A stretch of 64,000 nucleotides of DNA, taken from assembly GCA_977017645.1 (NCBI GenBank), contig OZ360243.1, positions 65,224,001-65,288,000 of the forward strand, written 5' to 3'. Below are positions 3,275 to 62,830 of this stretch, one piece after another. Made by a program: the position numbers and the translations under genes. The stretch's first letter is position 1. Each line of letters starts with the position of its first letter. The notes below the pieces were generated by a model. The model did not search any database. It was not told the origin of the DNA and saw nothing but the letters and a program-made list of their open reading frames with translations. The stretch is from Torpedo marmorata (Eukaryota).

Positions 3275-4440
3275 GCAGCAAATGTGGACTTTATTATTGG
3301 AATTTGGAAGGATGTGGGGAGGATTTAATTGAGACATATTACATTCTGAAGGGATAAATAAGATAAAAGCAGGGGGTTGTTTCCACTGGCACGGGAGACA
3401 AGAAATAGGGGACATAGCCTCAAGTTAACCAGAGGTGTGCGATCCAGTGATCATTGGAGGATCAAAGGTGGAGAGGGTGAGCAAATTTAAGTTCTTGGGT
3501 GTCACTATCTCGGAGGATCTTTCCTGGACCCAACACACGAATGTCATCGTGAAGAAAGCACGTCAGAGCCTCTACTTCCTCAGGAGTTTGCGGAGGTTTG
3601 ATATGACAACAGAAATCCTGGCAAATTTCTACAGAGGTGTGATGGAAAGTGTGTTGGCCGGCTGCATCACGGTCTGGTATGGGGACACCAATACCCCTGA
3701 GCGTAAAGCCCTGCAAAAGATAGGAGAAACAGCCCAGGACATCACAGGCCAAACCCTCCCCACCATCGAGAACATCTACGGGGAATGCTGCCGTCGGAGA
3801 GCAGCAGCAATCATTAAGGATCCACACCACCCAACACACACTCTGTTCTTGCTGCTACCATCAGGAAAGAGGTATAGGTGCCACAAGACTCGCACCATCA
3901 GGTTCAGGAACACCTACTACCCCTCCACCATCAGACTCCTCAACAACAAACTCAATCAGGGACTCATTTAAGGACTCTTACTTTTGCACTTTAATAATTT
4001 TTTTCTCTCTTTGTATTGAACAGTCAGTATATTTACATTTCTTTATTTGTTTACATGTGTACGTTGAGTACAATTTTTTTGACTACCGATAAGCGGTAAT
4101 TCTGCCGCGCCCGCAGGAAAAATAATCTTAGGCTTGTGTGTGATGTCATGTATGTAATCTGACAATAAATCTGAAATCTGAAGATTCAGGGAAGTAGATT
4201 TAGGACAGAGGTAAGAAGAATCTGTGACATTCTCTGCCCAAGGAAGCAGCAGCTTCTTTAAGTATATTTAAGACACTGATAGAAATTTGAAGAATAGAGG
4301 AAATAAGGGTTATGGGGAACAGGTGGGCAAGTGGAGCTGAATCCATGGCCAGATCAGCCATGCTCTTGTTGAAGGTTGGAGCAGGCTCGCTGGGTCAGAT
4401 GGCCGACTCCTGCTCCTGTTTCTTGGATCCTTATGTAACT
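3275..4440 (+). mobile_element. CR1 3' fragment interrupted by a Rex1-like LINE
   Basis: CR1 sequence breaks at ggacatagcctcaag (about 3424) and resumes at aagattcaggg (about 4181). Confidence 0.75.
3428..4180 (+). mobile_element. Rex1/Babar-like LINE 3' end (DUF1891-type C-terminus)
   Basis: ORF 3435-3971 VERVSKFKFLGV...LLPSGKRYR. Tail aataaatctgaaatctg. Confidence 0.88.
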
Positions 4441-5634: not shown

Positions 5635-5902
5635 AAATTTAAATTTAAATTTAATTTATTTAAATTTAAATTTAGACATACAGCACGGTAACAGGCCCCT
5701 TCGGGTCACGAGCCCGTGCAGCCCAAATACACCAAATTGACCTACAATCCCCGGTACATTTTTAAAGGGTGGGAGGAAACCAGAGCGCCCGGAGGAAACC
5801 CACGCAGACAGGGGGAGAACGTGCAAACTCCTTACAGACAGCGCCGGGTTCGAACCCCTGTCCCGATCGCTGGCGCTGTAATAGCGTGGCGCTAACTACT
5901 AT
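5635..5902 (-). mobile_element. HE1-like V-SINE
   Basis: Reverse-complement V-domain and B box, with (aaattt)n tail. Confidence 0.88.
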
Positions 5903-6899
5903 CCGGTTTTATTGCTTCTAGTAGCTTGTTCCAGATACAAACTACCCTCTGGGTGAAAGAGGTTCCCCTGAGGTCCGTCTTAAACTAATCTCACATGAGT
6001 AAAATTATGTTGCCTTTGCTCTGCATGAACTGATCTCTCCCTTTAAAACTGCTCTTGTGTACTGTGTTCTATTTACTGTACTATGTATGGGATGACCAGC
6101 TGAACTGCTCACAAAAAAACTGCACCTTGGTACCTGTGTCTATAAATGAGCAAAATCTTTCCTTCTGGAAAAGTTCAAGATGCAGTGAAAAAGTTTGTTT
6201 TGCGAGCAGTTCAGTTTGTCAAACCGTACATAGTACAGCAAGTAAAATAAAGTTCAGACTGCAGAGTAACAGAGTTAGGACAGAGCAAAGGCCACATAAT
6301 GTTACTGGAGTGAGATTTGTTCAGGACAGGAAACGGTGGGAAAGAAACTGTCCTTGAATCTAATGCAGTGTGATCTCACACTCATGAATCGAGGAGGGTG
6401 AAGAGTGTGAGATCAGAATCAGAATCAGAATTTATTGACATGAACAAGTCATGAAATTCAGTGTTTATGATGAGTCTTTTCATACGTTGGCTGCTTTTTC
6501 CAAGGCAGCGGGAAGTGCACTTGGTGTCGATGGAGGGGAGGGTGGGGTTTGTGTGATGGTCTGATAATGCCTGGTGGTTAGCACAGACTCGATGGGCTGA
6601 ATGGCCTATTTCCATGCCGAATGGCACTAGACTAAGTATGAATGTAAAGATTGGTCCTTTGCAAATGTCCAGATTTCTCCACCGGGAATATTAATTTTTA
6701 CCAAGAGTATGTTACCAGAGCCAATGCTATTCCTCTAATACCTTTCTAAATTTGCTCCGATTCAAGCCTGAACAGTATTGGTGGATCATTTGGCCTGTGA
6801 GAGCTTAATGACCCATCTTAGATGCCATTGGATGATGGTTGAGGGAAGGAATCTTAACTTAATTTTATTCCACCTCAGTTTTTGCAGGCAAAACATAAT

Positions 6900-7265: not shown

Positions 7266-7660
7266 GGGGTAAAACACGAAAGTCTGCAGAAGTAAAATCA
7301 CAAATGCTGGAAAAACTCAGCTGGTCAAACAGTGTAAATTTAGACAAAATTACAGGCCATTTCGGCCCCCAAGTCCGTGCCGCCCAATTACACCCAATTG
7401 ACCTACAAACCCTGGTACATTTCGAATGGTGGGAGGATACTGAAGTACTCGGGGGAAACCCATGCAGACACGGGGAGAACGTAGAAACTCCTTACAGACA
7501 GCGTGGGATTAAAACCCCGGTCCTGATAGCTGGCGCTGTAACAGCGTTGCGCTAACCGTTATGCTAACCGTGCCACCCCAACGGTTCGGGCTTGAGCCCT
7601 TCGTCAAGGTATGCTCAGCTGATAGAGCTAATGTTTCACAGCTCCAGCATTTGTGTTGAG
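7266..7660. mobile_element. Penelope-derived short element split by a V-SINE (7336-7577, minus)
   Basis: gtaaaacacgaaagtctgcag...ctcagctggtcaaacagtgt, then the SINE, then ggttcgggcttgagcccttcgtcaaggtatg. Confidence 0.75.
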
Positions 7661-18925: not shown

Positions 18926-18949
18926 TGCACTATTTCAAATCGTTTACAC

Positions 18950-19217
18950 ATTTTTAAATTTAAAAAAAAATTAGACATACAGCACGGTAACAGGCCATTT
19001 CAGCCCACGAGCCCGTGCCGCCCAATTACACCCAATTAACCTACAAACCCTGGTACGTTTCAAATGGTGGAAGGAAACAAGAGCCCCCGGGGAAAACCCA
19101 CACAGACACGGGGAGAACATACCAACTCCTTACAGACAGCGCGGGATTCGAACCCCGGTCCCGATCGCTGATGCTGTAAAGGCGTTGTGCTAACCGCTAC
19201 GCCAACCATGCCGCCCC
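18950..19217 (-). mobile_element. HE1-like V-SINE, near full length
   Basis: Complete tRNA head, V-domain and tail. Confidence 0.9.
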
Positions 19218-19539
19218 AATGTTACATTCTGAACTGCAGTCACCATTTTAATGAAGAAAACACAATAGGTGTCAGCAACCTTCACAAGTACGATAACACT
19301 GATTGGGGAATAAACATTGGACAGGGTGTCACGGAGAATTTCCTGACTTTTCAAAAGGGTATTCAAATCCCTGGAGTGGGACCCCACCTCACAGATGAGC
19401 CACAAGTGTCTGCAATGTATATTGTGAAATGGAACTACTGACACGTGTCACATGGTTGAGATTGGAAGTATCAATTTCTTAGTATGTGCTTGTGCATCGT
19501 GTTCAATGCATAGGCAGGTGATGCTACCTTTCATCAGAC

Positions 19540-20499: not shown

Positions 20500-21198
20500 T
20501 AAATACATACAGAAATGCTGGAGGAACTCAGCCGGTCTTGCACCATCCATAGGAGGTAAAGATATATTACCGACGTTTCGGGCCTGAGCCCTTCTTCAAG
20601 GTATAAGCAATCAGACATCTCAATAAAGACTGGGGAGAGAAAGGGGGAAAGAATGGCCGGGGAGGAGTCCAGACCAACAGCCAAAAGGTGTTAATTGAAT
20701 ATGATAAGAGGAGAGGTAAGAATTGATTTTGGCTCTGTGAAAGGAGACAGAGAGAAAAGGGAAGAGAGAGAGAGAAACAGAGCTGGGGGAAAGACGACAA
20801 GGGGATGAAGATGGGTGGGGGGGGGGTTGTTTAATGGAAACCAGAGAAGTTGATGTTAATGCCATCCAGTTGGAGGGTGCCAAGACAGAAGATGAAGTGT
20901 TGTTTTTTAACAGAAACCGGAGAAGTCGATGTTAATGCCATCCGGTTCGAGGGTGTCCAATTAACACCTTTTACTTGTTGGCCTGGACTCCTCCCCCTCC
21001 CATTCTTCCCCCTTTCTCTCCCCAGTCTTTCTTCATACACCTGCCTGCTTTTTGCTTATACCTTGAAGAAGGGCTCAGGCTCAAAACGTCAGTAATACAT
21101 CTTTACCTCCTATGGATGCTGCGAGATTGGCTGAGTTCTTCCAGCATTTCTGTGTTTTTACTACAATCACAGCGCCTGCAGACTTCCGTGTTTCACCA
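20500..21198. mobile_element. Penelope-like element remnant with inverted termini
   Basis: Arms about 20505-20610 and 21050-21160 are inverted. The internal minus-strand QHFIFCLGTLQLDGININFSGF resembles the C-terminus of the Penelope GIY-YIG domain. Confidence 0.82.
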
Positions 21199-22325: not shown

Positions 22326-22521
22326 AACATGTATATGACAATAAACTCATTATCATTACATTCATATGTCTGTCTCAGAGCCTCTTAAATGCGACTGTTG
22401 TATCTGCTTCCACCACTACATCTGGCAGCCCGTTCCAGGCACCCACTATTCCCTCTGTGATAAGCCCCACACATCACCTTTTAACTTTTCCCTCTTCACC
22501 TTAAATGCATATCCTCTGGAG

Positions 22522-22896
22522 CAGTGGTTTTCAAACTGCCCCCCTAAACTCACGTTCCACCTTAAGCAATCCCTATGCCATAAGTGCTCTGTGATTAGTA
22601 AGGGATTACTTAAGGTGGTATGTGAGTGGGAAGAAAAGGTTTGAAAGCCACTGTTTTAATCATACCTAATTGACTCGTTATGTGTACGGTTTCATAACTC
22701 CAAGGGAAATGGCCCAATGACAATTTTTCTCAAGCAAAATATTTCAGTAACAATTGGGTCTAGAGCAATGGTTCTCAACCTTCCCTTCCCACTCACATAC
22801 CACCTTAAGCAATCCCTTACTAATCACAGAGCACCTATGGCATAGAGATTGCTTAAGGTGGAATGTGAGTTTAGGGGGACAGTTTGAAATCCACTG
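22522..22896. mobile_element. hAT (Charlie-like) composite MITE
   Basis: Terminal inverted repeats cagtggttttcaaactg / cagtttgaaatccactg and a perfect 8-bp target duplication ctctggag (22514-22521, 22897-22904). Confidence 0.92.
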
Positions 22897-23315
22897 CTCT
22901 GGAGTGTGACAGTTTTAGCCTGGGGGAAAAGATTCTGGCTGTCTACTCTATCAATGCCTTTCATAATTTTATATAGCAACCCAAATTTGTCCAACCTCTC
23001 CTCATCGCTCACACCCTCTAATCCTAGTAAATCTCTTCTGTATCCTTTCCAAAGCCTCCACATCTGTTCGTTGAACATTTCCATGACGATTCAAAGTGGA
23101 GAAGGGCATGTGTTGGCTTTCCCATTGAGAACACCCTGAAGTCCGGTGCAAATGGTTGAAAGAACCCAACACCTCCTAAATAAGCCACCCTCAAGAAGCT
23201 CCTGCCTCACCCATAGCAAGGTCTGCAGGTCTTGCTAAGGTTTCCTTGGTCACCTCAGAACCACAGAAGTGGAGGTAAGTCAACTTCGATCTCCAGAGAT
23301 GGCCCAAGAGAAGAG

Positions 23316-25349: not shown

Positions 25350-27148
25350 TTGAGGAGTATAAAAAAATGCAAGAAAAACCTCAAGAAAGAAATCAGGAAG
25401 GCTAAAAGAAGATATGAGGTTGCTTTCGCAGACAATGTCAAGGAAAATCCTAAGGGTTTCTACAGGTATATTAAGAGCAAAAGGATAGGAAAGGACAAAA
25501 TTGGTCCATTTGAAGATCAGAGTGGTCGGCTTTGTATGGTGCCAAAAGAGATGGGGGAGATCTTAAATGGGTTTTTTTCATCAGTACCCACTCAGGAAAC
25601 AGGCACAGAGTCGTGGGAAGTAAGGAAAACAAGCAGTGAGGTCATGGAACCTATACAGATTAAAGCAAATAAGGGTGGATAAATCCCCAGGGCCTGACAA
25701 GATATTCCCTCGGACCTTGAGGGAGGCTAGTGCAGAAATTTCAGGGGCTCTGGCAGAAATATTTAAAATGTCCTTAGCCACGGGTGTGGTGCCAGAGGAT
25801 TGGAGGGTAGCTCACGTTGTTCCATTGTTTAAAAAAGGCTCCAAAAGTAATCCAGGAAATTATAGGCCGGTGAGCCTGATGTCAGTGGTAGGTAAATTAT
25901 TGGAAGGTGTTCTAAGAGATCAGATATACAATTATTTGGATAGCCGTGGACTGATTAGGGATTATCAACATGGCTTTGTGCGTGGTAGGTTGTGTTTAAA
26001 GTTGACAAAGGAAAGGCTGTGGATGTTGTCTACATGGACTTTAGTGAGGCCTTTGACAAGGTCTCGCATGGGAGGTTAGTCAGGAAGGTTCAGACACTAG
26101 GTATTCATGATGAAGTAGTGAACTGGATTCAACAATGGCTGGACGGGAGAAGCCAGAGAGTAGTGGTAGATGATTGCTTCTCAGATTGGAGGCCTGTGAC
26201 TAGTGGTGTGCTTCAGGGATCGGTACTGGGACCATTGTTGTTTGTCATCTATATCAATGATCTGGATGATAATATGGTAAATTGGATCAGCAAGTTTGCA
26301 GATGACACGAAGATTGGAGGTGTTGTGGACAGCGAAGGTTTTCAAACCTTGCAGAGGGATCTGGACCAGCTGGTGAAATGGGCTGAAAAATGGCAGATGG
26401 AGTTTAATGCAGACAAGTGTGAGGTGTTGCATTTTGGAAAGACAAACCAAGAAAGGACATACACAGTAAATGGTAGGGCACTGAGGAGTGCGGTAGAACA
26501 GAGGGATCTGGGAATACAGATACATAATTCCCTGAAAGTGGCGTCACAGGTGGATAGGGTTGTAAAGAGAGCTTTTGGCATATTGGCCTTCATAAATCAA
26601 AGTATTGAGTACAGGAGGTGAGAAGTTATGTTAAAGTTGTATAAGACATTGGTGAGGCCAAATTTGGAGTATTGTGTGCAGTTTTGGTCACCTAACTACA
26701 GGAAAGATATCAATAAGATGGAAAGAGTGCAGAGTTAGGTCTTTATTCCCTTGAGCATAGAAGAATGAGGGGAGATTTGATACCTCTATTTAAAATTATG
26801 AGGGGGATAGACAGAGTAAATGTAGATAGGCTTTTTCCACTGAGGGTCGGTTAGATACAAACCAGAGGACATGGGTTGAGTGTGAAAGGGGAAAAGTTTA
26901 GGGGGAACATTAGGGGGAACTTCTTCACACAGAGAGTGGTGGGAGTGTGGAACGAGCTGCCAGCTGAAGTGGTGAATGCAGTCTCAATTTTAATATTTAA
27001 GAAGAATTTGGACAGGTACATGGTTGGGAGAGGTATGGAGGGTTATGGGCTGGGTGCAGGTCAGTGGGACTAGGAAAAAAATGGTTCGGCACAGACTAGA
27101 GGGGCAGAGGTGGCCTGTTTCTGTGTTGTAATGTTTTATGGTTCTACA
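25350..27148 (+). mobile_element. CR1/HER1-type LINE, 5'-truncated ORF2 with internal deletions
   Basis: KENPKGFYRYIKSKR, PGNYRPVSL, YMDFSEAFDKV, QGSVLGPLLF, KFADDTK and NFFTQRVV motifs plus tail. Confidence 0.96.
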
Positions 27149-28749: not shown

Positions 28750-28972
28750 TTAACATTTTTTATTAACATTTAGACATATAGGTAACATACCCTTTCAGCC
28801 CACGAGCCCGCACTGCCCAATTACACCCAATTGACCTACAACCCCCGTACGTTTTGAAGGGTGGGAGGAAACCGGAGCCCCCGGAGGGAACCTACGCAGA
28901 CACAGGGAGAACGTACAAACTCCTTACAGACAGCGCCGGATTCGAACCTGGGTCGCTGTGACAGTGTTGCCC
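28750..28972 (-). mobile_element. HE1-like V-SINE
   Basis: Reverse-complement V-domain and B box. Confidence 0.85.
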
Positions 28973-29249: not shown

Positions 29250-30425
29250 AGCTCGGACACATGGAAGGGCAATCTTGAAAGTGGAACTGTTAACTACAAG
29301 AGACTTCAACAAGATATGGACAAGCTGAAAGAGTGGGTGAAGAAGGCACGGCAAATGGAATCCAATGTTGGAAAATGAGAGGTGATCTACATTAGTGAAC
29401 GTTATAAAAGGCAGTGTATTTGTTAACAGCAAGAAATCAAGTCGTGCTGATGTTCAAATGGACCGAGGTGTGTTTGTACACAATTAACTAAAGCCCAACA
29501 AGCAGGTGCAGCAAGCTATTAGGAGAACAAATGGTATGTTGGCCTTTCTTACACAATGAATTGAACAAAGGAGTAAGTAAGATTTACTGTAATTTTATAG
29601 GGCCTTAGTATTATGCATATTTTTGGTCTCTTGACTTAATAAAGTATGTACGTGCCAGAGGAACTGGAGTGCAAATTAACTAAACTGATTCCAGGGATGA
29701 TTGGTTTGCGGTAGAAGAAGAGATTGAGTAGACGAGGACTGTGTTCTACATTGTTTACAAGAAGAAAAGAAGATCTTAGTTGTGGGGCTATAGAGCATGA
29801 AAGCTGGCCCTTCGGCCCAACTCATCCACCCTGTCCAAGTTATCGACCTGAGCTAGTCCCATTTAGCCTGAAGATGCAGACTCAACATTATAAAAACAGC
29901 TTCTTCCCCTCCTCCATCAGATTTCTGAACGAACAATAAACCTATGGACACTACCTCACTTTTTCTCTTTTTTGCACTAATTATTAATTTTTTTTTTAAA
30001 TTAAAAATTTTAATTTAGACATACAGCACGGTAACAGGCCATTTCGGCCCACGAGTACATACCGGGGGTGTAGGTTAATTGGGCGGCACGGACTCGTGGG
30101 CCGAAATGGCCCTGTTACCGTGCTGTATGTCTAAATTAAAAATTAAAAGTTTGGCCACCCCTGGTTTAAGGGGTAGGCCTTTTAGGATAGGAATGAGGAG
30201 AGATTTCTCCACTCAAGTGGTGGAGACCCTTTGGAATTCCCCACCACAAGGGATCTGATCATCGTGATCATTCAAAACAGAGATCGCTAGATTTCTGGGC
30301 ATAAAGGAAGTCACAGGTCGGGGGAGTGCTGGAAAACAGAGGCGAGGTGAAAATCAATCACAATGAAATGCACAACAGACTCAAAAGGCTAGGTGGCAGA
30401 CTCCTGCTCCAACTTCTAATGCATT
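29250..30425 (+). mobile_element. Old CR1 fragment with nested Rex1-like tail (about 29865-29990) and SINE fold-back (about 29995-30150)
   Basis: gcaggtgcagcaagctattaggagaacaaatggtatgttggcc and related CR1 motifs. Confidence 0.7.
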
Positions 30426-30984: not shown

Positions 30985-31913
30985 ACCTTTCTTTTTTAAA
31001 TCTCTTTATTAATTCCATAAAATCATGTTCATTCACTATATATATTTACCGGAAAAAAGCAAAGAAAAGCATTATCACATGTTCCATTAATCCATCCATA
31101 ACGGAGTATACATTACAGATATATATCAATTGTTTTTTTCTTTACAATTTAGTATTATAATACCAATAGGAATAAAAAGAACCAAACCACAAAAAAAAGA
31201 TAATACAGTAATTTCATCATAATACACTTTTTTTATAAAAGCTAAAGCAATCTAAACTAGCCTACCACCTCCCCAGAATTGCACTGACCTGTAGAAATAA
31301 TATAACTTCAAATCATGAGGAATCATAAGCTCTGATAATAGTCGATAAAGGAACCCCAAATATTAGTAAATTTTAGGTTTAATTTAATATTTGAACATCT
31401 AATCTTTTCTAATGTTAAATAGGACATTAAACTTGATAGCCAATCTTCATATATAGGAGGATTACCATCCTTCCATTTTAGCAAGATCTGTCGCCTTGCA
31501 ACCAGAGAAGAAAAAGCAATCACATGTTTTTGATTATTAGTAAGATCATGATTACTAGGATCATTTATACCAAATATTGCTATAAATGGATTTGGATCTA
31601 ATTGAGTAGCTAAAACCAAAGAAAGAGTACAAAAAATTTTGTTCCAAAATCTAACTAACTTAGGGCACAACCAAAACATGTGAAATAATGTACCTTCATG
31701 AACATTACATCTATCACACATAGATGATATATTTGATGAAAATCTAGCCAGTAAAGATTTCGAGTAATGAGCTCTGTGAACTACTTTGAATTGAATTAAA
31801 TTATGTCTTGCACATAATGAAGAGGTATGGATATGGTCCAAAATATTGGACCACACTGAAGGTGAAAAAACTTCTAAAAAATCTCTTTCCCAAGCCTCCT
31901 TTATTTTATCCAC
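30985..31913 (-). mobile_element. L1-clade LINE 3' end (ORF2 CCHC region, 3' UTR, polyA signal)
   Basis: ORF 31323-31913 LIQFKVVHRAHY...CDRC...GTLFHMFWLCPKL. AATAAA and an A-rich tail near 31010. Confidence 0.9.
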
Positions 31914-32100
31914 ATGCTGTATCGTGCTGAAAAACCGACTAACTAGTTAACAGAAACAGTTAGCTAAGAGATTATTTTCAATAAGTATAATTATTAATTA
32001 CTACATTATTTTAGGTAACTAACCTTTTGTGCGCACATTAATTTCCTTTGTGCGCTGGTTGCAAAACGTGTGTGCACGCGCACACGCCAACAGCTTAGAG

Positions 32101-32473
32101 CAGGGTTTCCCAAACTTTTTCTTTCCACTCACATACCACCTTAAGTAATCCCTATGCCATAGGTGCTCTGTGATTAGTAAGGGATAACTTAGTGGTATGT
32201 GAGTGGGAAAAAAAGGTTGAGAACCACTGCTCTAGACCCAATTGTTACTGAGATATTTTGCTTGAGAAAAATTGTCATTGGCCCATTTCCTTTGGAGTTA
32301 TGAAACCGTGCACATAACGAGTCAATTAGGTACGATTAAAACAGTGGTTTTCAAACTTTTTCTTTCCACTCACATACCACCTTAAGTAATCCCTTACTAA
32401 TCACAGAGCACCTATGGCATAGGGATTACTTAAATTGGTATGTGAGTGGAAAGAAAAAGTTTGGGAAACCCTG
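32101..32473. mobile_element. hAT composite MITE, second copy
   Basis: Terminal inverted repeats cagggtttcccaaacttttt / aaaaagtttgggaaaccctg and a perfect 8-bp duplication gcttagag (32093-32100, 32474-32481). Confidence 0.93.
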
Positions 32474-32478
32474 GCTTA

Positions 32479-32751
<273 letters not shown>

Positions 32752-32924
32752 TTAAAATAGAGCTGAGTCCACAACCAGATCAGCCATGATCTTATCAAAT
32801 GCCAGAGCAGGCTCAACTGGCTGGATGGCCAACTCCTATTCCTTATGCTCTTATGGAAATAATATTTCCAAAAACACATAACTTTCTTTCCTGTTTCCAT
32901 GATAGCAGAGCAAGAATATGCCAT

Positions 32925-33154
32925 CATAAATTTCGGTCCACGAGTCCGTGCCGCCCAATTTACACCCCATTAACCTACACCCCCAGTACGTTTTGAACGG
33001 TGGGAGGAAACCGAAGCCCCCGGAGAAAACCCACGCAGACACGGGGAGAACGTACAAACTCCTTACAGACAGCGCGGGACTCGAACCCCAGTCCAGTCCC
33101 GATCGCTGGCGCTGTAAAGGCGTTGCGCTAACCGCTACGCCAACCGTGCTGCCC
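32925..33154 (-). mobile_element. HE1-like V-SINE
   Basis: Well-preserved head and V-domain. Confidence 0.9.
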
Positions 33155-34037: not shown

Positions 34038-34157
34038 CATTGTCGTTAAAACACTGCCTCACCAGGACAGGATGTTTAAGACTTACATGTTTTTTTGTTT
34101 TAACCATGATAGCTCACTTAGAAATGAAACATTCTTTTTAAATATTTGAAAAATTAT

Positions 34158-34397
34158 TTAAATTTTAAATTTAGACATACAGCACGGTAACAGGCCATTT
34201 TGGTTCAAGAGACCGTGCCACCCAATTTACACCCAATTAACCTACAACCCCCGGTACGTTTTGAACAGTGGGAGGGAACTGGAGCCTCCGGGGAAAACCC
34301 ACGCAGACACGGGGAGAACGTACAAACTCCTTACAGACAGCGCAGGATTCGAACCCTGGTCCCAATCGCTGGCGCTGTAAGAGCGTTGCACTAACCA
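34158..34397 (-). mobile_element. HE1-like V-SINE
   Basis: Tail, V-domain and B box. Confidence 0.9.
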
Positions 34398-36084
34398 CTT
34401 TTAGAAAGGAACCGGTAACTACAAGAGAATGGTACTTTCTCAGTTTGGCAAGTGAATCTGGTGCTGGGGTGAAATGGAGGAGGAGAGAAATATCTTTGCA
34501 TCTTCCCACTAGTCAAGAGCTCCATCTAAAAAATAAATTTCCATTTGCCCAGCCCACTTAATTTTTGCTCCTGTTGATCTGCTCTGCATTGCCAGCAACA
34601 GAATGTGAATGTTTATTTTTAAAAGAACATGTAGTGGCCTTTTAAAAATAACAAAAGCAAGGGACACAATTCAAAGGATGCCTGAAGAACACTTCTTAAT
34701 ACATGTTATTGTACTGAGTATCCAGAGCAGCCAAGGCTAATAGAGTGTCACATATTTTTCTGCTGATCACATCGACTTCGAGCTGATCCTGTTTGGACAG
34801 TCACCCGAAACTCCTTCACCAAACTACTCGTTTCGTTCACCCACACCAACACTCCCCACCCCTCCTCCCGAATTCTTGTTCAAACACCTTTGTGTTTTGA
34901 GGTCGGGGAAGTGATATTGTTGTAGAAAGCAGTTATCTCGACCCAGCAGATATCCGGCAGCCCTTCTCTAGGAAGTCAGCTTTATGCATTAGAGAACAGG
35001 GAAGGTGGGGGTGGGGGAAGAGAGTACAAAAAAAATGGGGAGACCTGCTGCCAAGTAAATGCACTGAAAGCACTTCCCTCCCTCGAAAGTTTTCCTATCT
35101 TAACGAGGCTAAGAAAGATTGGAATTCCATTAGAGGTCAATCATTAAAATCAACATTTTCACAGAGGCACAAAGGGAGCAGAATGGTTTGGTTAGGCCAG
35201 TGCAATCGGGACATTACATTTATGTTGATTGATGTGGGGTAAATGATAACCCATGTTACTTTTTTTTTGTTTCCCTTGGTAGAAGGTTAAGACGGAGGAG
35301 GGCGGGGGGGGGGGGGGCGTTGCGCAGGCAGGGGCAAAAAGTAGTCTAGCAAACTACGCACATCGCAAAGCCAGAACAAGTCAGGTTCAAATGAAGACTG
35401 CTGAAGAGACGGCAGCTCTCTCAACAATCACAATGTGTACTCTGGAACATTATTGATAGCCAGGGTGCCAGCGATAATTGGCGTTTCAATAGGCCTGTCA
35501 AATGGTTTAGGAATGGTTTGTTAAAACTTACAGGCGAATGTCACTTAAATATATTGCAAGATATATATATATTAAATGGAATTAGGGCATTATGTGGCTG
35601 ATTGTAGAGTCTATCAAAGGGGGTTTTGATACGTATGATCAAATAATGCAGATGTGATGGTGGAAAAGAAAATAAACAAAATTGACAGAGGAAAATCATT
35701 AAAATTTACAGTGATCTTTCCAGGAAGTCGCTTGAGGAATATCACACATGCTAAGAGTTTGGATAGACTAATGATTTAATTTCCATTTATGTTTGCGATG
35801 ACTAATTTAAAGTTTCTGTCAATGAAAAAGGCAAGAGATGTGCAGGCTTTCAAAACCAATACAAGGAGAGGTGAGATGTTCTGCCTCTTTAATGTGTGGT
35901 ACAGAAATACTAGAAAATACTCGTGTCTATCAAAGCTGCTCGGTCTTACAAGATATTGCAAGAGCCGATTGAAATACTGGAGGTGTGGTGCGGATTTCCG
36001 CAAACCACCCCTTGCTCCCCCCACCCAAATAAAGTCTTACTCAGATCAGGAAATGAAAAGCTGCTGTTAGATCCTTTAATCCCG

Positions 36085-44871: not shown

Positions 44872-45042
44872 AAGTAAAACACGAAAGTCTGCAGACACCG
44901 TGGTTGAAGTAAAAACACAATGCTGGAGAAACTCAACTTTGATGAAGGACTCGAGCCTGGAACGTTGGTTGTGCATCTTTATCTTTACTATATAAAGTAC
45001 ACTGTTTGACCTGATGAGTTTCTCCAGCATTGTTTTATTTTT
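44872..45042. mobile_element. Short Penelope-derived fold-back element
   Basis: gtaaaacacgaaagtctgcagacacc...aatgctggagaaactca / tgagtttctccagcatt inverted ends. Confidence 0.8.
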
Positions 45043-45442
45043 ACAAAACATTTGATGCTGGTTGGATTCACTCTGATCAGACAACACACGGAGAAAGGGC
45101 ATTCCTGTATTTCAAATCTCTACTTCAAAATCATATAATAATGTATTCGATTTGAGACGAGGTCTCGAGTGCTCTTGATGTTAGTCACCCGAGGCATGCA
45201 TGGGTTCGTTCAGCCGGACTTGCGAAGTGTCTTTTCTTTAATGTATATTTTAATCAATTTTATCGCTCAGCGCGCACACGCACACACTATCAGCATTGTA
45301 TACCGTTCAACGTAACTTTTCCCCTTCCCCCAAAATGACAAATTTGAGTTCGAATGCTTCATTTGTTAAATTGGCGATTGATTCCAATCCGATAAGTTTG
45401 TAAATAGCTCTGAGGCTATCCATGCGGTTAAATGAAAGAAGT

Positions 45443-45592
45443 CAAACACGAAAGTCTGTAGACACCGTGGTTGAAGTAAAAACCTAAAGTTGGAGAGACT
45501 CGGCAGGTCAAACAGTGTACGTTATGTGGCAAAGATAAAGATACATAACCAACGTTTCGGGCTTGAGCCCTTCATCAAGGTATGAACAAAAT
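45443..45592. mobile_element. Short Penelope-derived element (single arm)
   Basis: Same sequence family as 44872 and 46684. Confidence 0.8.
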
Positions 45593-46683
45593 GCAGTTAA
45601 ATCCCCGGTAACATTAAGAGGCGGTGTAAGAATGCTACACGCGTGTTACATGTGTGTGCTGTTTCTCAAATTAACATCCTTAATCAAGAACATGGGAGAA
45701 CAGCGTCCTTTATCAACGACACGAAAGACCATTTCCCGAGATAGTTTCCCATCAAACCCCCAACAACATGGTACACTATTGGCCCCATCTGACCTACCCT
45801 TCTCTTCAGACGAACAAGCTATTTTATAAACTTTCTTTCTCAAGGGATGAGAGATAATAAAACCAAAAGCCTCGTGAATGGACGGACGGATGGGATTTTA
45901 AAACAGAGAAAATTAAGCGATGTTAGCACAGAATGTAAATCTGTCCCACTTTACATGAACCGGTTTAACAGGATTGTAAATCGGGTTTCGCCCGGGTCCA
46001 ATATTAAAGATCATTGAAACTTCGTTCTTGCTCAATTGATTGATTCACAACCGATGAACAATTCGACTGTAAGTCAATAAGCTAGCGGCCCGTCTCATCT
46101 CAAAATGTCACGTGGAATCTAAACAAAGCCTCGACAATCCAAATAGTGTAATGGTCGACAAATAGTTGTCTAGTATCTACAATGGACGAATAATGATACA
46201 GGGACAATCAGGACTATAATTACAATCTATGGACCATAATTTATTGAGACAGGCCACACACAGTGGCGAAGGACGGGAGGGAATGGATATGGTACATTGC
46301 GGATTGATGGGATGATGTGTGAAAGTTGGGAACCTCCGCTGAACGCGTCACCTCCAGCACTAAGGGACGCGGAGTATGTGAAGAAAATCTCTTCTCATTC
46401 GTGTGTGTGTGTTGTACCTTAAGGGTCACTTGTGATGCCACATGGAACGCACTGATTGACAGGGCCCTGCTAATAGGCACAATTGTTTCAACAACTAGCT
46501 CCCCCCAAAAAAAAATCCCTAATAGCGAATTTGAAAAGTGTATACGGCGCTCCACCATAATATATGTCGACTTCCCCCCAAAAGTAAACTTTATTCCCAA
46601 TAAAAATATATATACACAAAAGAAAACAGTATTTCTAGATTCTTGGTGACATATCGTCTTTTAGTCTGTACATTTCTTACATT

Positions 46684-47010
46684 GGTAAAACACGAAAATC
46701 TGTAGACACCGTGGATGAAGTAAAAAACACAAATGCTGGAGAACTCAGCAGGTCAAACAGTGTATTTTATGTAGCAAAGGTAGAAATACATAACCGACGT
46801 TTCGGGCTTGAGCCCTTCATCAAAGTATGAGAAAATGCCGGCAGGCGTCCGAACAAAGGAGTGAGGGGGGAAGGGGGGTGGGAAAGGCAGGCATTTTCTG
46901 ATACTTTGATGAAGGGCTCAAGCCTGAAACGTCGGTTATGTATTTCTACCTTTGCTACATAAAAGACACTGTTTGACCTGCTGAGTTTCTCCAGCATTTG
47001 TGTTTTTTAC
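46684..47010. mobile_element. Penelope-derived element with about 120-bp near-perfect inverted arms
   Basis: About 46720-46838 is the reverse complement of about 46890-47010, with a G-rich spacer. Confidence 0.88.
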
Positions 47011-48244
47011 ATTTCTTACATTGTCGTGTTGGCCAATTATCATTCTTTGTCGCTCCATTGCTTCCTGGGGGAAGATATCCCCTCCGTTATTTCAAGGGCT
47101 TCCCCTCCATTCTCAGCCCCCTGATTCTCTGTAGCGGAAGGGACCTTCTATGTGGATTCTCTCTTTCCAGTTGTGAGATCAAACAATTGTGAGAGGGGAT
47201 GGGAGTTGGAGGGGAGATATATAAAAATGCCTGGGGAATATTATCCATTGATCCGCATCGATTTCCTCCGAAAGATACCAATACATTCGCTGCTCTGATC
47301 TGCCAGCACAGTGGCGATAGACCACGTGTAAAAGGACAGATCCCAAGTAGCATGCAATTACTCTTTAATTAATCGGGTTACAGTTGTTCCACGTTGATCT
47401 CATGCCTGTCTCTCTTCTACGTGTTATATTTGGTTTAAACCACCGCTCCCCTGCGCAGGTAAAGCTGTATAAATAGACCTTAGCTCAGGCAGGGGGTTAA
47501 GCTGAGGACAGGCAGCCTGGAGGCGGACAGCCCCCTTAACGTTTATAGAAAATAATGAAAAAAAAACCTGAAATATAACAACTATCTTGCAGTTTGCGTG
47601 CGGACGGGGACTGGGAGATAATTAGTGGGCAGGGTATTTCAGGCAGGAAATACTTTAAACAGTATGTTACCGGCCTAAAGTAGCCATTTCCCTCCTTCTT
47701 ACTGAAAAACAAAAATAGTCTTTTATAAATCCTTGAAGAAAGCGGATTTTAAAAAGTGCGATAAATCCCACTTTAACTCGTCTATTAAAAGACGGAGCTT
47801 TTTTTTATTTATAAATAAATCGGTATAATGCGAAGATTTCTAGATTTACGAAAGCAGAACCGATATTTCACAAGAGAACTTTTCGGATAAAAGAGATCAG
47901 ACATCTGTAGCATAAGGCAGGCCGGTTATTTATTATCCCAGCCTCCCTCCCTGAGAACAATCTTATTTAAAGTGCTAATTCGATTCTTATCAGATTTATT
48001 ACTTACAGAACAGCTAAAGGTGTTAGAGCGCTGATATATTTATAGTTAAATAGTGACACGTAGAGGAGGAATGGGTTTTCTTCAGAAAATTGATAACTCT
48101 GAAGTTTAGTCGAAATATGAAAAAACGAACAGTGTGAAATGAATAATCAGCGATTGTGTAATGTAAAAAATATTAAAGAGTAACTAACACTGTCCCTCCG
48201 TGTGCTAATTTACTCGCTTAGAATGCGGGGTGGTTATTCGGCTG

Positions 48245-49531: not shown

Positions 49532-49657
49532 TGGGCTCAAGCCCGAAACATTGGTTATGTATCTTTGCTACATAAAGTACACTGTTTGTCCTGCTGAGTT
49601 TCTCCCGCATTGTGTTTTTACTTCAACCACGGTGTCGGCAAACTTTCGTGTTTTACC
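49532..49657. mobile_element. Short Penelope-derived element, truncated
   Basis: gggctcaagcccgaaacattggttatgt...aaactttcgtgttttacc. Confidence 0.8.
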
Positions 49658-62604: not shown

Positions 62605-62830
62605 TGTAAAACACGAAAGTCTGCAGACACCATGATTAAAGTAAAAACACAATGCTGGAGAAACCCAGCAGGCCGAACAGACATTGTACGTTCTGTAGCA
62701 AAGATAAAGATACATAACAACGAAAGTGTGATGAAGGGCTCAAGCCCGAAACGTTGGTGATGTATCTTTATCTTTGCTACATAAATGACACTGTTTGTCC
62801 AGCTGAGTTTCTCCAGCGTTGTGTTTTCAC
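62605..62830. mobile_element. Short Penelope-derived fold-back element
   Basis: Same family, with inverted arms around tgatgaagggctcaagcccgaaacgtt. Confidence 0.85.

Follow-up and report, generated by a model that had tools for sequence, protein, structure and literature searches.

The window analysed here, a stretch of 64,000 nucleotides from contig OZ360243.1 of Torpedo marmorata, contains at positions 46685-47010 a fold-back of two inverted arms, each of which matches the 3' end of a Penelope-like retrotransposon and carries a minimal type I hammerhead motif. Its features, in window coordinates and with element positions counted on the full-length unit of locus L067 described below, are:

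46670..46684, target-site duplication, left copy; identical letters at 47009-47023; 13-16 bp long, according to how one counts its overlap with the end of the element
46685..46891, minus strand, left arm: element 3' end with tail (unit positions 3574-3783), 94% identical to the L067 unit
46685..46719, minus strand, 35-nt tail, present in the left arm only
46789..46829, minus strand, minimal type I hammerhead motif of the youngest subfamily, A1; U3 at 46823 and a wobble pair U2.1-G1.1, with the cut predicted between 46796 and 46795
46887..46891, head-to-head seam; about 5 nt common to both arms, whose alignments overlap here
46887..47010, plus strand, right arm: element 3' end without tail (unit positions 3626-3749), 98% identical to the L067 unit
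46900..46940, plus strand, minimal type I hammerhead motif, also A1; U3 at 46906, predicted cut after 46933
46975..46996, plus strand, conserved block downstream of the motif, common to all subfamilies and used as a hammerhead-independent probe for element ends
47009..47023, target-site duplication, right copy, matching 46670..46684

The minus-strand motif reads catact-TTGATGA-a-gggc.tcaa.gccc-GAAA-cgTC-ggttatg. Its minimal type I layout is as described in an earlier note made from the letters of the window, with an extra A, a 4-bp stem II, an ACGU palindrome, a GUC or GUU cleavage triplet and, across copies, tcaa or tcag loops. In place of the canonical core CUGANGA, with its Watson-Crick C3-G8 (or U3-A8) pair, the motif has U3 together with G8. 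The opposite arm had been said to repeat the motif; the layout is indeed the same, but the letters differ at two positions, a G at stem I position 2.6 (46900) and a T at stem II position 11.1 (46925), and the plus-strand copy has a G10.1-U11.1 wobble and has lost the outer pair of stem I. Over 46742-46842 and 46887-46987, the arms are 96% complementary.

Copies of the motif elsewhere in the window

All nine motifs reported in the earlier note were located at, or within a few bases of, the positions it gave, and four fold-backs lie within the window. The remaining copies, compared with the element unit, are:

7300..7612, minus strand, A2-like copy split by another repeat; motif part 7578-7612, tail part 7300-7335
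20509..21193, fold-back of the tcag subfamily (B1); motifs 20563-20607 (minus) and 21055-21100 (plus), the plus arm alone is tailed
44875..45044, fold-back of the older tcaa subfamily (A2) with motif 44935-44980 (plus); target duplication of 11 bp, with only the minus arm tailed
45444..45594, minus strand, solo truncated A2 copy; motif 45544-45584
49533..49655, plus strand, A2 copy with its truncation inside the motif
62607..62827, A2 fold-back; target duplication of 9 bp, again with only the minus arm tailed

Position 3 is T in seven of the nine motifs; the motif at 62727, which is sited at the inversion seam, has G, and the one at 49533 lacks the position. The 7578 copy, interrupted by another repeat, has GAAC in place of GAAA. 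The B1 fold-back also holds remnants of the endonuclease C-terminus at 20829-20959 (minus). An Rfam scan of the window gave no hammerhead match at E<=10.

Several other repeats share the window. Two older, diverged Penelope-type ends at 1493 (minus) and 19604 (plus) have no recognisable core. An abundant SINE-like repeat of about 250 nt occurs at 5638-5921, 7335-7577, 18937-19219, 28781-28949, 32923-33152 and 34137-34420, the second of these copies having inserted into a Penelope end directly after the cleavage triplet, and two inverted pieces of it form a hairpin at 30023-30126. A second inverted-repeat family of MITE-like look (22513-22904 and 32101-32482; about 390 bp in total, arms of 114-128 nt, about 90% complementary) showed no hammerhead motif and no clear target duplication in its two copies. 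The segments 25989-26618 (plus) and 31326-31946 (minus), of about 200 codons each, are presumably LINE-type coding fragments, judging by their motifs.

The arms belong to a protein-coding Penelope-like retrotransposon

A genome search with the plus arm returned 40 matches, and most of the 30 that we examined run upstream through a pyrimidine-rich 3' UTR into an open reading frame with reverse transcriptase (RT) and GIY-YIG endonuclease (EN) motifs. Because the arms continue into this frame, we take the family to be a protein-coding Penelope-like element (PLE) and its short copies to be 5'-truncated insertions of it, in agreement with the Penelope origin proposed earlier. Pfam matches to RVT_1 (E 2.5e-6) followed by GIY-YIG (E 0.0017) were both weaker than the Pfam cut-offs; the frame also contains the motifs DKG, YIDD and YCIRC..YIGET and, in translation, a CX4CX2C linker between RT and EN. 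The tcag subfamily, window copy included, is linked to the same kind of frame. A PDB sequence search with an 879-aa frame gave no match.

The element is about 3.8 kb long and its 3' end consists of the pseudo-LTR (pLTR), the minimal type I hammerhead and, optionally, the 35-nt tail. Locus L067 gives a full partial tandem, in which a pLTR with motif and tail is followed by a unit of 3,783 nt with the same motif and tail at its end. Matches to the 5' region carried the upstream pLTR motif in 26/30 cases, all 26 with U3, and two same-sense motifs, 3.1-4.4 kb apart, were present in 13 of the 20 longer regions. Most copies are plain truncations extending into the reading frame, and no tandem monomers were found. 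None of 20 full-length regions, drawn from thousands of candidates, has an unbroken frame (the longest open frames have 1,044 and 879 codons).

By its RT with C-terminal GIY-YIG domain, pLTR tandems, inverted truncated copies, tail and target duplication, the sequence identifies an EN+ Penelope-like element. The linker makes it probably Neptune-type, a CX2-5CxxC linker between RT and EN being a feature of the Neptune clade that is also common to Nematis (PMC8557442). In the upstream pLTR of A1, an AUG lying in the hammerhead core starts a frame of 17 codons that is in phase with the main one, whose likely start lies about 180 nt downstream, and a cut would remove that upstream AUG; the core AUG is absent in B.

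In three loci (L067, L068, L083), the 5' third of the main frame contains GAPNATAAD-like units of about 51 nt, tandemly repeated in variable copy number and followed by a long proline-rich stretch. One A1 insertion lies within a segment of more than 10 kb present as many near-identical copies on small contigs (L003-L009, L027, L075-L085; 96-99.9% identity). At G000:C53:56320935-56321073 there are four tandem copies, 35 nt apart, of an element stretch that starts at the predicted cut site.

Fold-backs arise anew with each insertion

Element ends cluster at unit positions 3745-3757 or 3773-3783, and solo ends are of both kinds (43 tailed, 35 untailed, 1 other). Among the collected loci we found 16 adjacent head-to-head inverted pairs with arms from about 60 to about 1,000 nt, and 14 of these have exactly one tailed arm, a duplication of 8-16 bp and a seam of their own. 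Given the solo-end proportions, the chance of at least 14/16 such discordant pairs if ends were independent is about 0.002. In the other two pairs both arms are tailed and a convincing duplication is lacking; an inversion within a tandem accounts for one, and the other joins two neighbouring subfamilies.

The fold-back at 46685-47010 is thus a single insertion, a truncated, head-to-head, two-headed stub of the protein-coding element, and such structures form anew each time. The earlier note had proposed a non-autonomous family of ribozyme-bearing fold-backs; the arms are instead ends of the coding element that have lost its 5' part, and as the 14 single-event fold-backs checked all have different seams, a fold-back family that spreads as a unit is not supported. 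Such a family, or a retrozyme-like one, is very improbable. It might have been suggested by the four fold-backs in the window alone and by the mobilisation in trans of pLTR cis sequences in rotifers (PMC3846280), but the distinct seams, the range of arm lengths, the prevalence of plain truncations into the reading frame and the lack of tandem monomers all speak against it. The strict one-tail rule supports priming from both nicks: the element's protein would nick both target strands about 15 bp apart, and DNA synthesis would be primed from each nick at the RNA's two internal start sites, giving arms with different end types.

The inverted arms do place a motif on a transcript from either strand, as the earlier note pointed out, but a transcript of the fold-back is predicted to form a single long hairpin (-223 kcal/mol, z -25) in which the lone sense motif pairs with its own antisense. 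For this reason, the fold-back probably does not work as a ribozyme unit, and its arms would give no partner for a dimer, each transcript having one sense copy predicted to be paired in this way.

U3-G8 is the norm in this genome

We searched the 6.2-Gb genome with an exact 26-mer and with a looser motif pattern. The exact 26-mer gave 68,676 matches with T3 and 465 with C3, as against 0 for reversed-pattern controls, so these motifs are not chance occurrences; the looser pattern gave 97,593 matches with U3 and 2,435 with C3. The suggestion that U3 is fixed in an amplified family therefore holds on a larger scale than had been proposed. Where the exact A1/A2 pattern matched with C3, the cause was a scattered point change, a one-base deletion or a seam. 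The possibility that C3 is retained next to an inserted U was ruled out for A1, in which no C adjoins the core.

Since many copies had been chosen with motif patterns, we re-sampled element ends with the downstream block. This gave 144 ends, of which 73 span the motif and the other 71 are truncated or too diverged. U3 was present in 25/25 A1, 10/11 A2 and 20/23 B ends, and C3 in 11/14 ends of the E/E'/F group; other changes were scattered and mostly of CpG type. The earlier statement that no copy has the canonical C3 thus applies to the window and to the young subfamilies, but not to the genome, in which the older subfamilies F and E have C3.

The family is also present in contig sets from five coded organisms. 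Among the matches listed for these organisms there was no T-to-C change at position 3 and the neighbouring position 2.1 varied, a weak hint from sequence that U3 may be shared beyond the T. marmorata genome. The A1 marker (T at 2.1) makes up about 93% in X6 and 15-35% in X1, X2 and X7, as if A1 had expanded in only some lineages, contig depths being a poor measure of this.

Subfamily history and a likely one-base slip

Subfamilies were split by their tail side into F and E, with C3, and E', B1-B3, A2a, A2b and A1, with U3; the fold-back at 46685-47010 belongs to A1. Majority sequences were taken from 6-40 copies per subfamily, many of them chosen by motif patterns. A tree of 66 copies, with motif columns excluded and 43 near-identical A1/B rows left out, gave a ladder F - E - E' - (A, B), in which the branch dividing U3 from C3 subfamilies has support of only 82/78, a level that neither establishes nor rejects a single U3 group. 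A search for an outgroup found no distant copy with an endonuclease piece, and a short outgroup-rooted tree gave no resolved order. The direction from C3 to U3 is instead indicated by copy age, taken as the median divergence of copies from their subfamily's majority sequence (F 0.105, E 0.11, E' 0.085, B/A2 0.05-0.08, A1 0.016).

With the shared upstream sequence as reference, E' is one base longer than E next to the old C3. Subfamily E has no predicted stem I, and a core-blocking helix is favoured there by 5-7 kcal/mol; the predictions for E', A2, B1 and B2 show stem I again (-2 to -4.4 kcal/mol). Because the gained base and the return of stem I coincide, U3 likely originated by a one-base slip that rebuilt stem I and not by plain substitution: it would have arisen once, when a base inserted next to the old C3 moved the register, bringing stem I back but giving up the core pair. 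In the two youngest subfamilies stem I is again at its weakest and a non-catalytic fold is preferred, the first stem I pair having become a U-G wobble in A1 and most of stem I having been lost in B3.

Conservation of the motif between subfamilies

Copies decay neutrally after insertion, so selection has to be tested between subfamilies. Among the seven with U3, 0/24 constrained motif positions changed, as against 14/27 third-codon positions of the endonuclease and 34/48 flank columns (Fisher p 2e-5 and 1e-9, respectively); the core is accordingly conserved relative to its flanks, a lack of which the earlier note would have counted against its reading. Changes occurred at three of the six free positions (N7, one loop base and H17), and apart from N7 and H17 the rest of the core, the extra base after A9, G10.1-C11.1, GAAA and the NUH triplet are invariant. 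Protein coding was rejected as the cause of this conservation: the frame closes after 17 codons in 25/25 A1 ends with AUG or a variant start, and B has no AUG.

In 12 chosen copies, 92.5% of cells in stems I, II and the palindromic remnant of stem III were paired, compared with 10-44% in slid controls. Covariation among the same copies comprised one pair changed on both sides and one shift of the stem I bulge, with a score matched by 52/500 shuffles; stem II pairs do not covary.

Does the motif cleave?

With moderate confidence, based on these sequence comparisons, we read the locus as a single truncated head-to-head Penelope insertion whose ribozyme is attenuated, likely slow, and kept in shape by selection. 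Copy 5' ends fall exactly at the cut site 78 times and at a control site 4 nt away 60 times (p 0.15), and the copies inspected were true truncations or internal deletions in 20/20 and 18/20 cases; with no excess of ends at the cut site, cut RNA does not appear to be a favoured template. Every single mutant of the CUGA region is low in activity in a type III hammerhead (PMC9901934), minimal PLE hammerheads are slow even as dimers, and the motif of an anole element cleaves only with protein, its cleavage being dispensable for insertion in vitro (PMC11167929), which are the reasons for preferring attenuation over a non-cleaving fold or full activity. Any cleavage would be expected not in fold-backs but in tandem transcripts, whose two same-sense motifs are separated by 3-4.4 kb, and the element's protein would probably help. 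Slow cleavage may be tolerated or even favoured, as a cut in the downstream motif, which is placed after the coding region and ahead of the priming sites, would separate the two. Counting against this reading are the weak formal covariation, the level of support for the U3/C3 branch together with the lack of resolution in the outgroup-rooted tree and the reliance on copy age for direction, the small and often motif-selected sets behind the subfamily majorities, the two inverted pairs with two tails, the broken frames of all 20 full-length regions, and the weak stem I and non-catalytic fold of A1 and B3, which also fit decay in progress. A stronger version is tentative, and we would sooner expect it to fail than to hold: the hammerhead would be deliberately kept slow, each successor since subfamily E having a different brake beside the cut site (a lost stem I, then U3-G8 via the slip, then a second wobble or shortened stem I) while the other catalytic bases stay fixed and the template stays joined to its priming sites.

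It is rather unlikely that the motif no longer cleaves and is kept as a protein-bound fold or, at the level of DNA, as a promoter or packaging signal of the pLTR. The low activity of C3U-type mutants in the type III hammerhead, the cleavage-independent insertion of the anole element in vitro and the lack of a pile-up of ends at the cut site would all agree with this, as would the continued weakening of stem I in A1 and B3 and the success with which Penelope clades without a hammerhead spread (PMC8557442). The positions that did change (N7, loop, H17), however, are those that a hammerhead leaves free, while G8, G12 and the NUH triplet were kept; a DNA signal is not expected to follow this pattern, although a protein-bound fold could. 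At the other extreme, a U3-G8 core fully active in its own context, its wobble offset by the shifted stem I, loop contacts or protein, would account for the strong conservation over several subfamilies; U3 also weakens the predicted core-blocking helix of subfamily E, tertiary contacts can rescue natural core variants, and the protein dependence of the anole motif leaves room for such help. We consider full activity improbable in view of the type III mutagenesis, the second wobble adjoining the core in A1, the lack of a genomic trace of cut templates and the slowness of minimal PLE hammerheads even with C3 and as dimers.

Comparison with known systems and significance

The element, its pLTR hammerhead and the fold-back layout are of already known kinds; comparisons here refer to the available text of the sources cited. 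The minimal hammerheads of metazoan PLE pLTRs (Cervera and De la Peña, 2014; PMC4209133) share the type I layout, the extra base after A9, G10.1-C11.1 and a palindromic 15.2-16.2 with no real stem III, and they too occur mostly as solo truncated copies, with opposite-strand pairs 100-700 bp apart. Discussion in that text is confined to compensated U3-A8, whereas here U3-G8 is fixed across seven subfamilies in about 98,000 matches, the one-base shift of register can be traced, and the youngest subfamily has a second wobble. The earlier note called the U3-G8 combination unusual; it is the norm in this genome and has a precedent in one Saccoglossus kowalevskii PLE row with U3 and G8 (PMC4209133, Fig. 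S3), for which we found no comment or test in the available text. No running-text account of a fixed U3-G8 family was found in the literature searched, although the kinetic literature on position 3 and Lunse et al. (2017) may cover it.

Head-to-head inverted, 5'-truncated pLTRs, partial tandems, short target duplications and a tail of 30-40 bp at one end only are all described for EN+ Penelope-like insertions (PMC8557442, PMC3846280). We see no difference in kind, the one-tail rule having been counted here in 14/14 single events; a tail of the 35-nt type was also described earlier (PMC8557442, PMC11167929). The protein of the Poseidon element in Anolis carolinensis (Frangieh et al., 2024; PMC11167929) makes nicks in both strands and extends them, starting at two internal RNA sites that bracket the tail. 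As here, the pLTR hammerhead of that element lies upstream of these RT start sites, the RNA continues from the tail into the reading frame, and no ends are mapped at the cut site in the available text; its motif, however, has C3-G8 and overlaps the start of the reading frame, whereas ours has U3-G8 with the long frame about 180 nt downstream, and our element's protein has a Neptune/Nematis-type linker, CX4CX2C. Non-LTR retrozymes (bioRxiv 10.64898/2026.07.22.740005) share the type I hammerhead and a link to Penelope pLTRs, but they are non-coding head-to-tail tandems, in contrast to the inverted truncations of a coding element seen here. The saltern ribozymes HHmeta and HHphage (PMC3088659, PMC7151607) likewise have a natural core change beside C3, one of them with U3, and cleave slowly; these are prokaryotic-virus ribozymes with two unpaired inserted bases, unlike the single base absorbed into stem I here.

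What is new is the proposed one-base-slip origin of the U3 core and its conservation between subfamilies, which together make a clean bench test possible. The fold-back is ordinary in itself, and its one-tail rule favours priming from both nicks. Descriptors demanding C3-G8 or U3-A8 would overlook about 98,000 motifs in this one genome. The role of the hammerhead in Penelope elements has been stated to be unclear (PMC8557442); with a very successful wobble-core lineage and its older C3 relatives in one genome, it can be asked whether cleavage rate has been selected up, down or neither, and, if deliberate slowness were true, the dated subfamily series would be a natural test of what the Penelope hammerhead is for.
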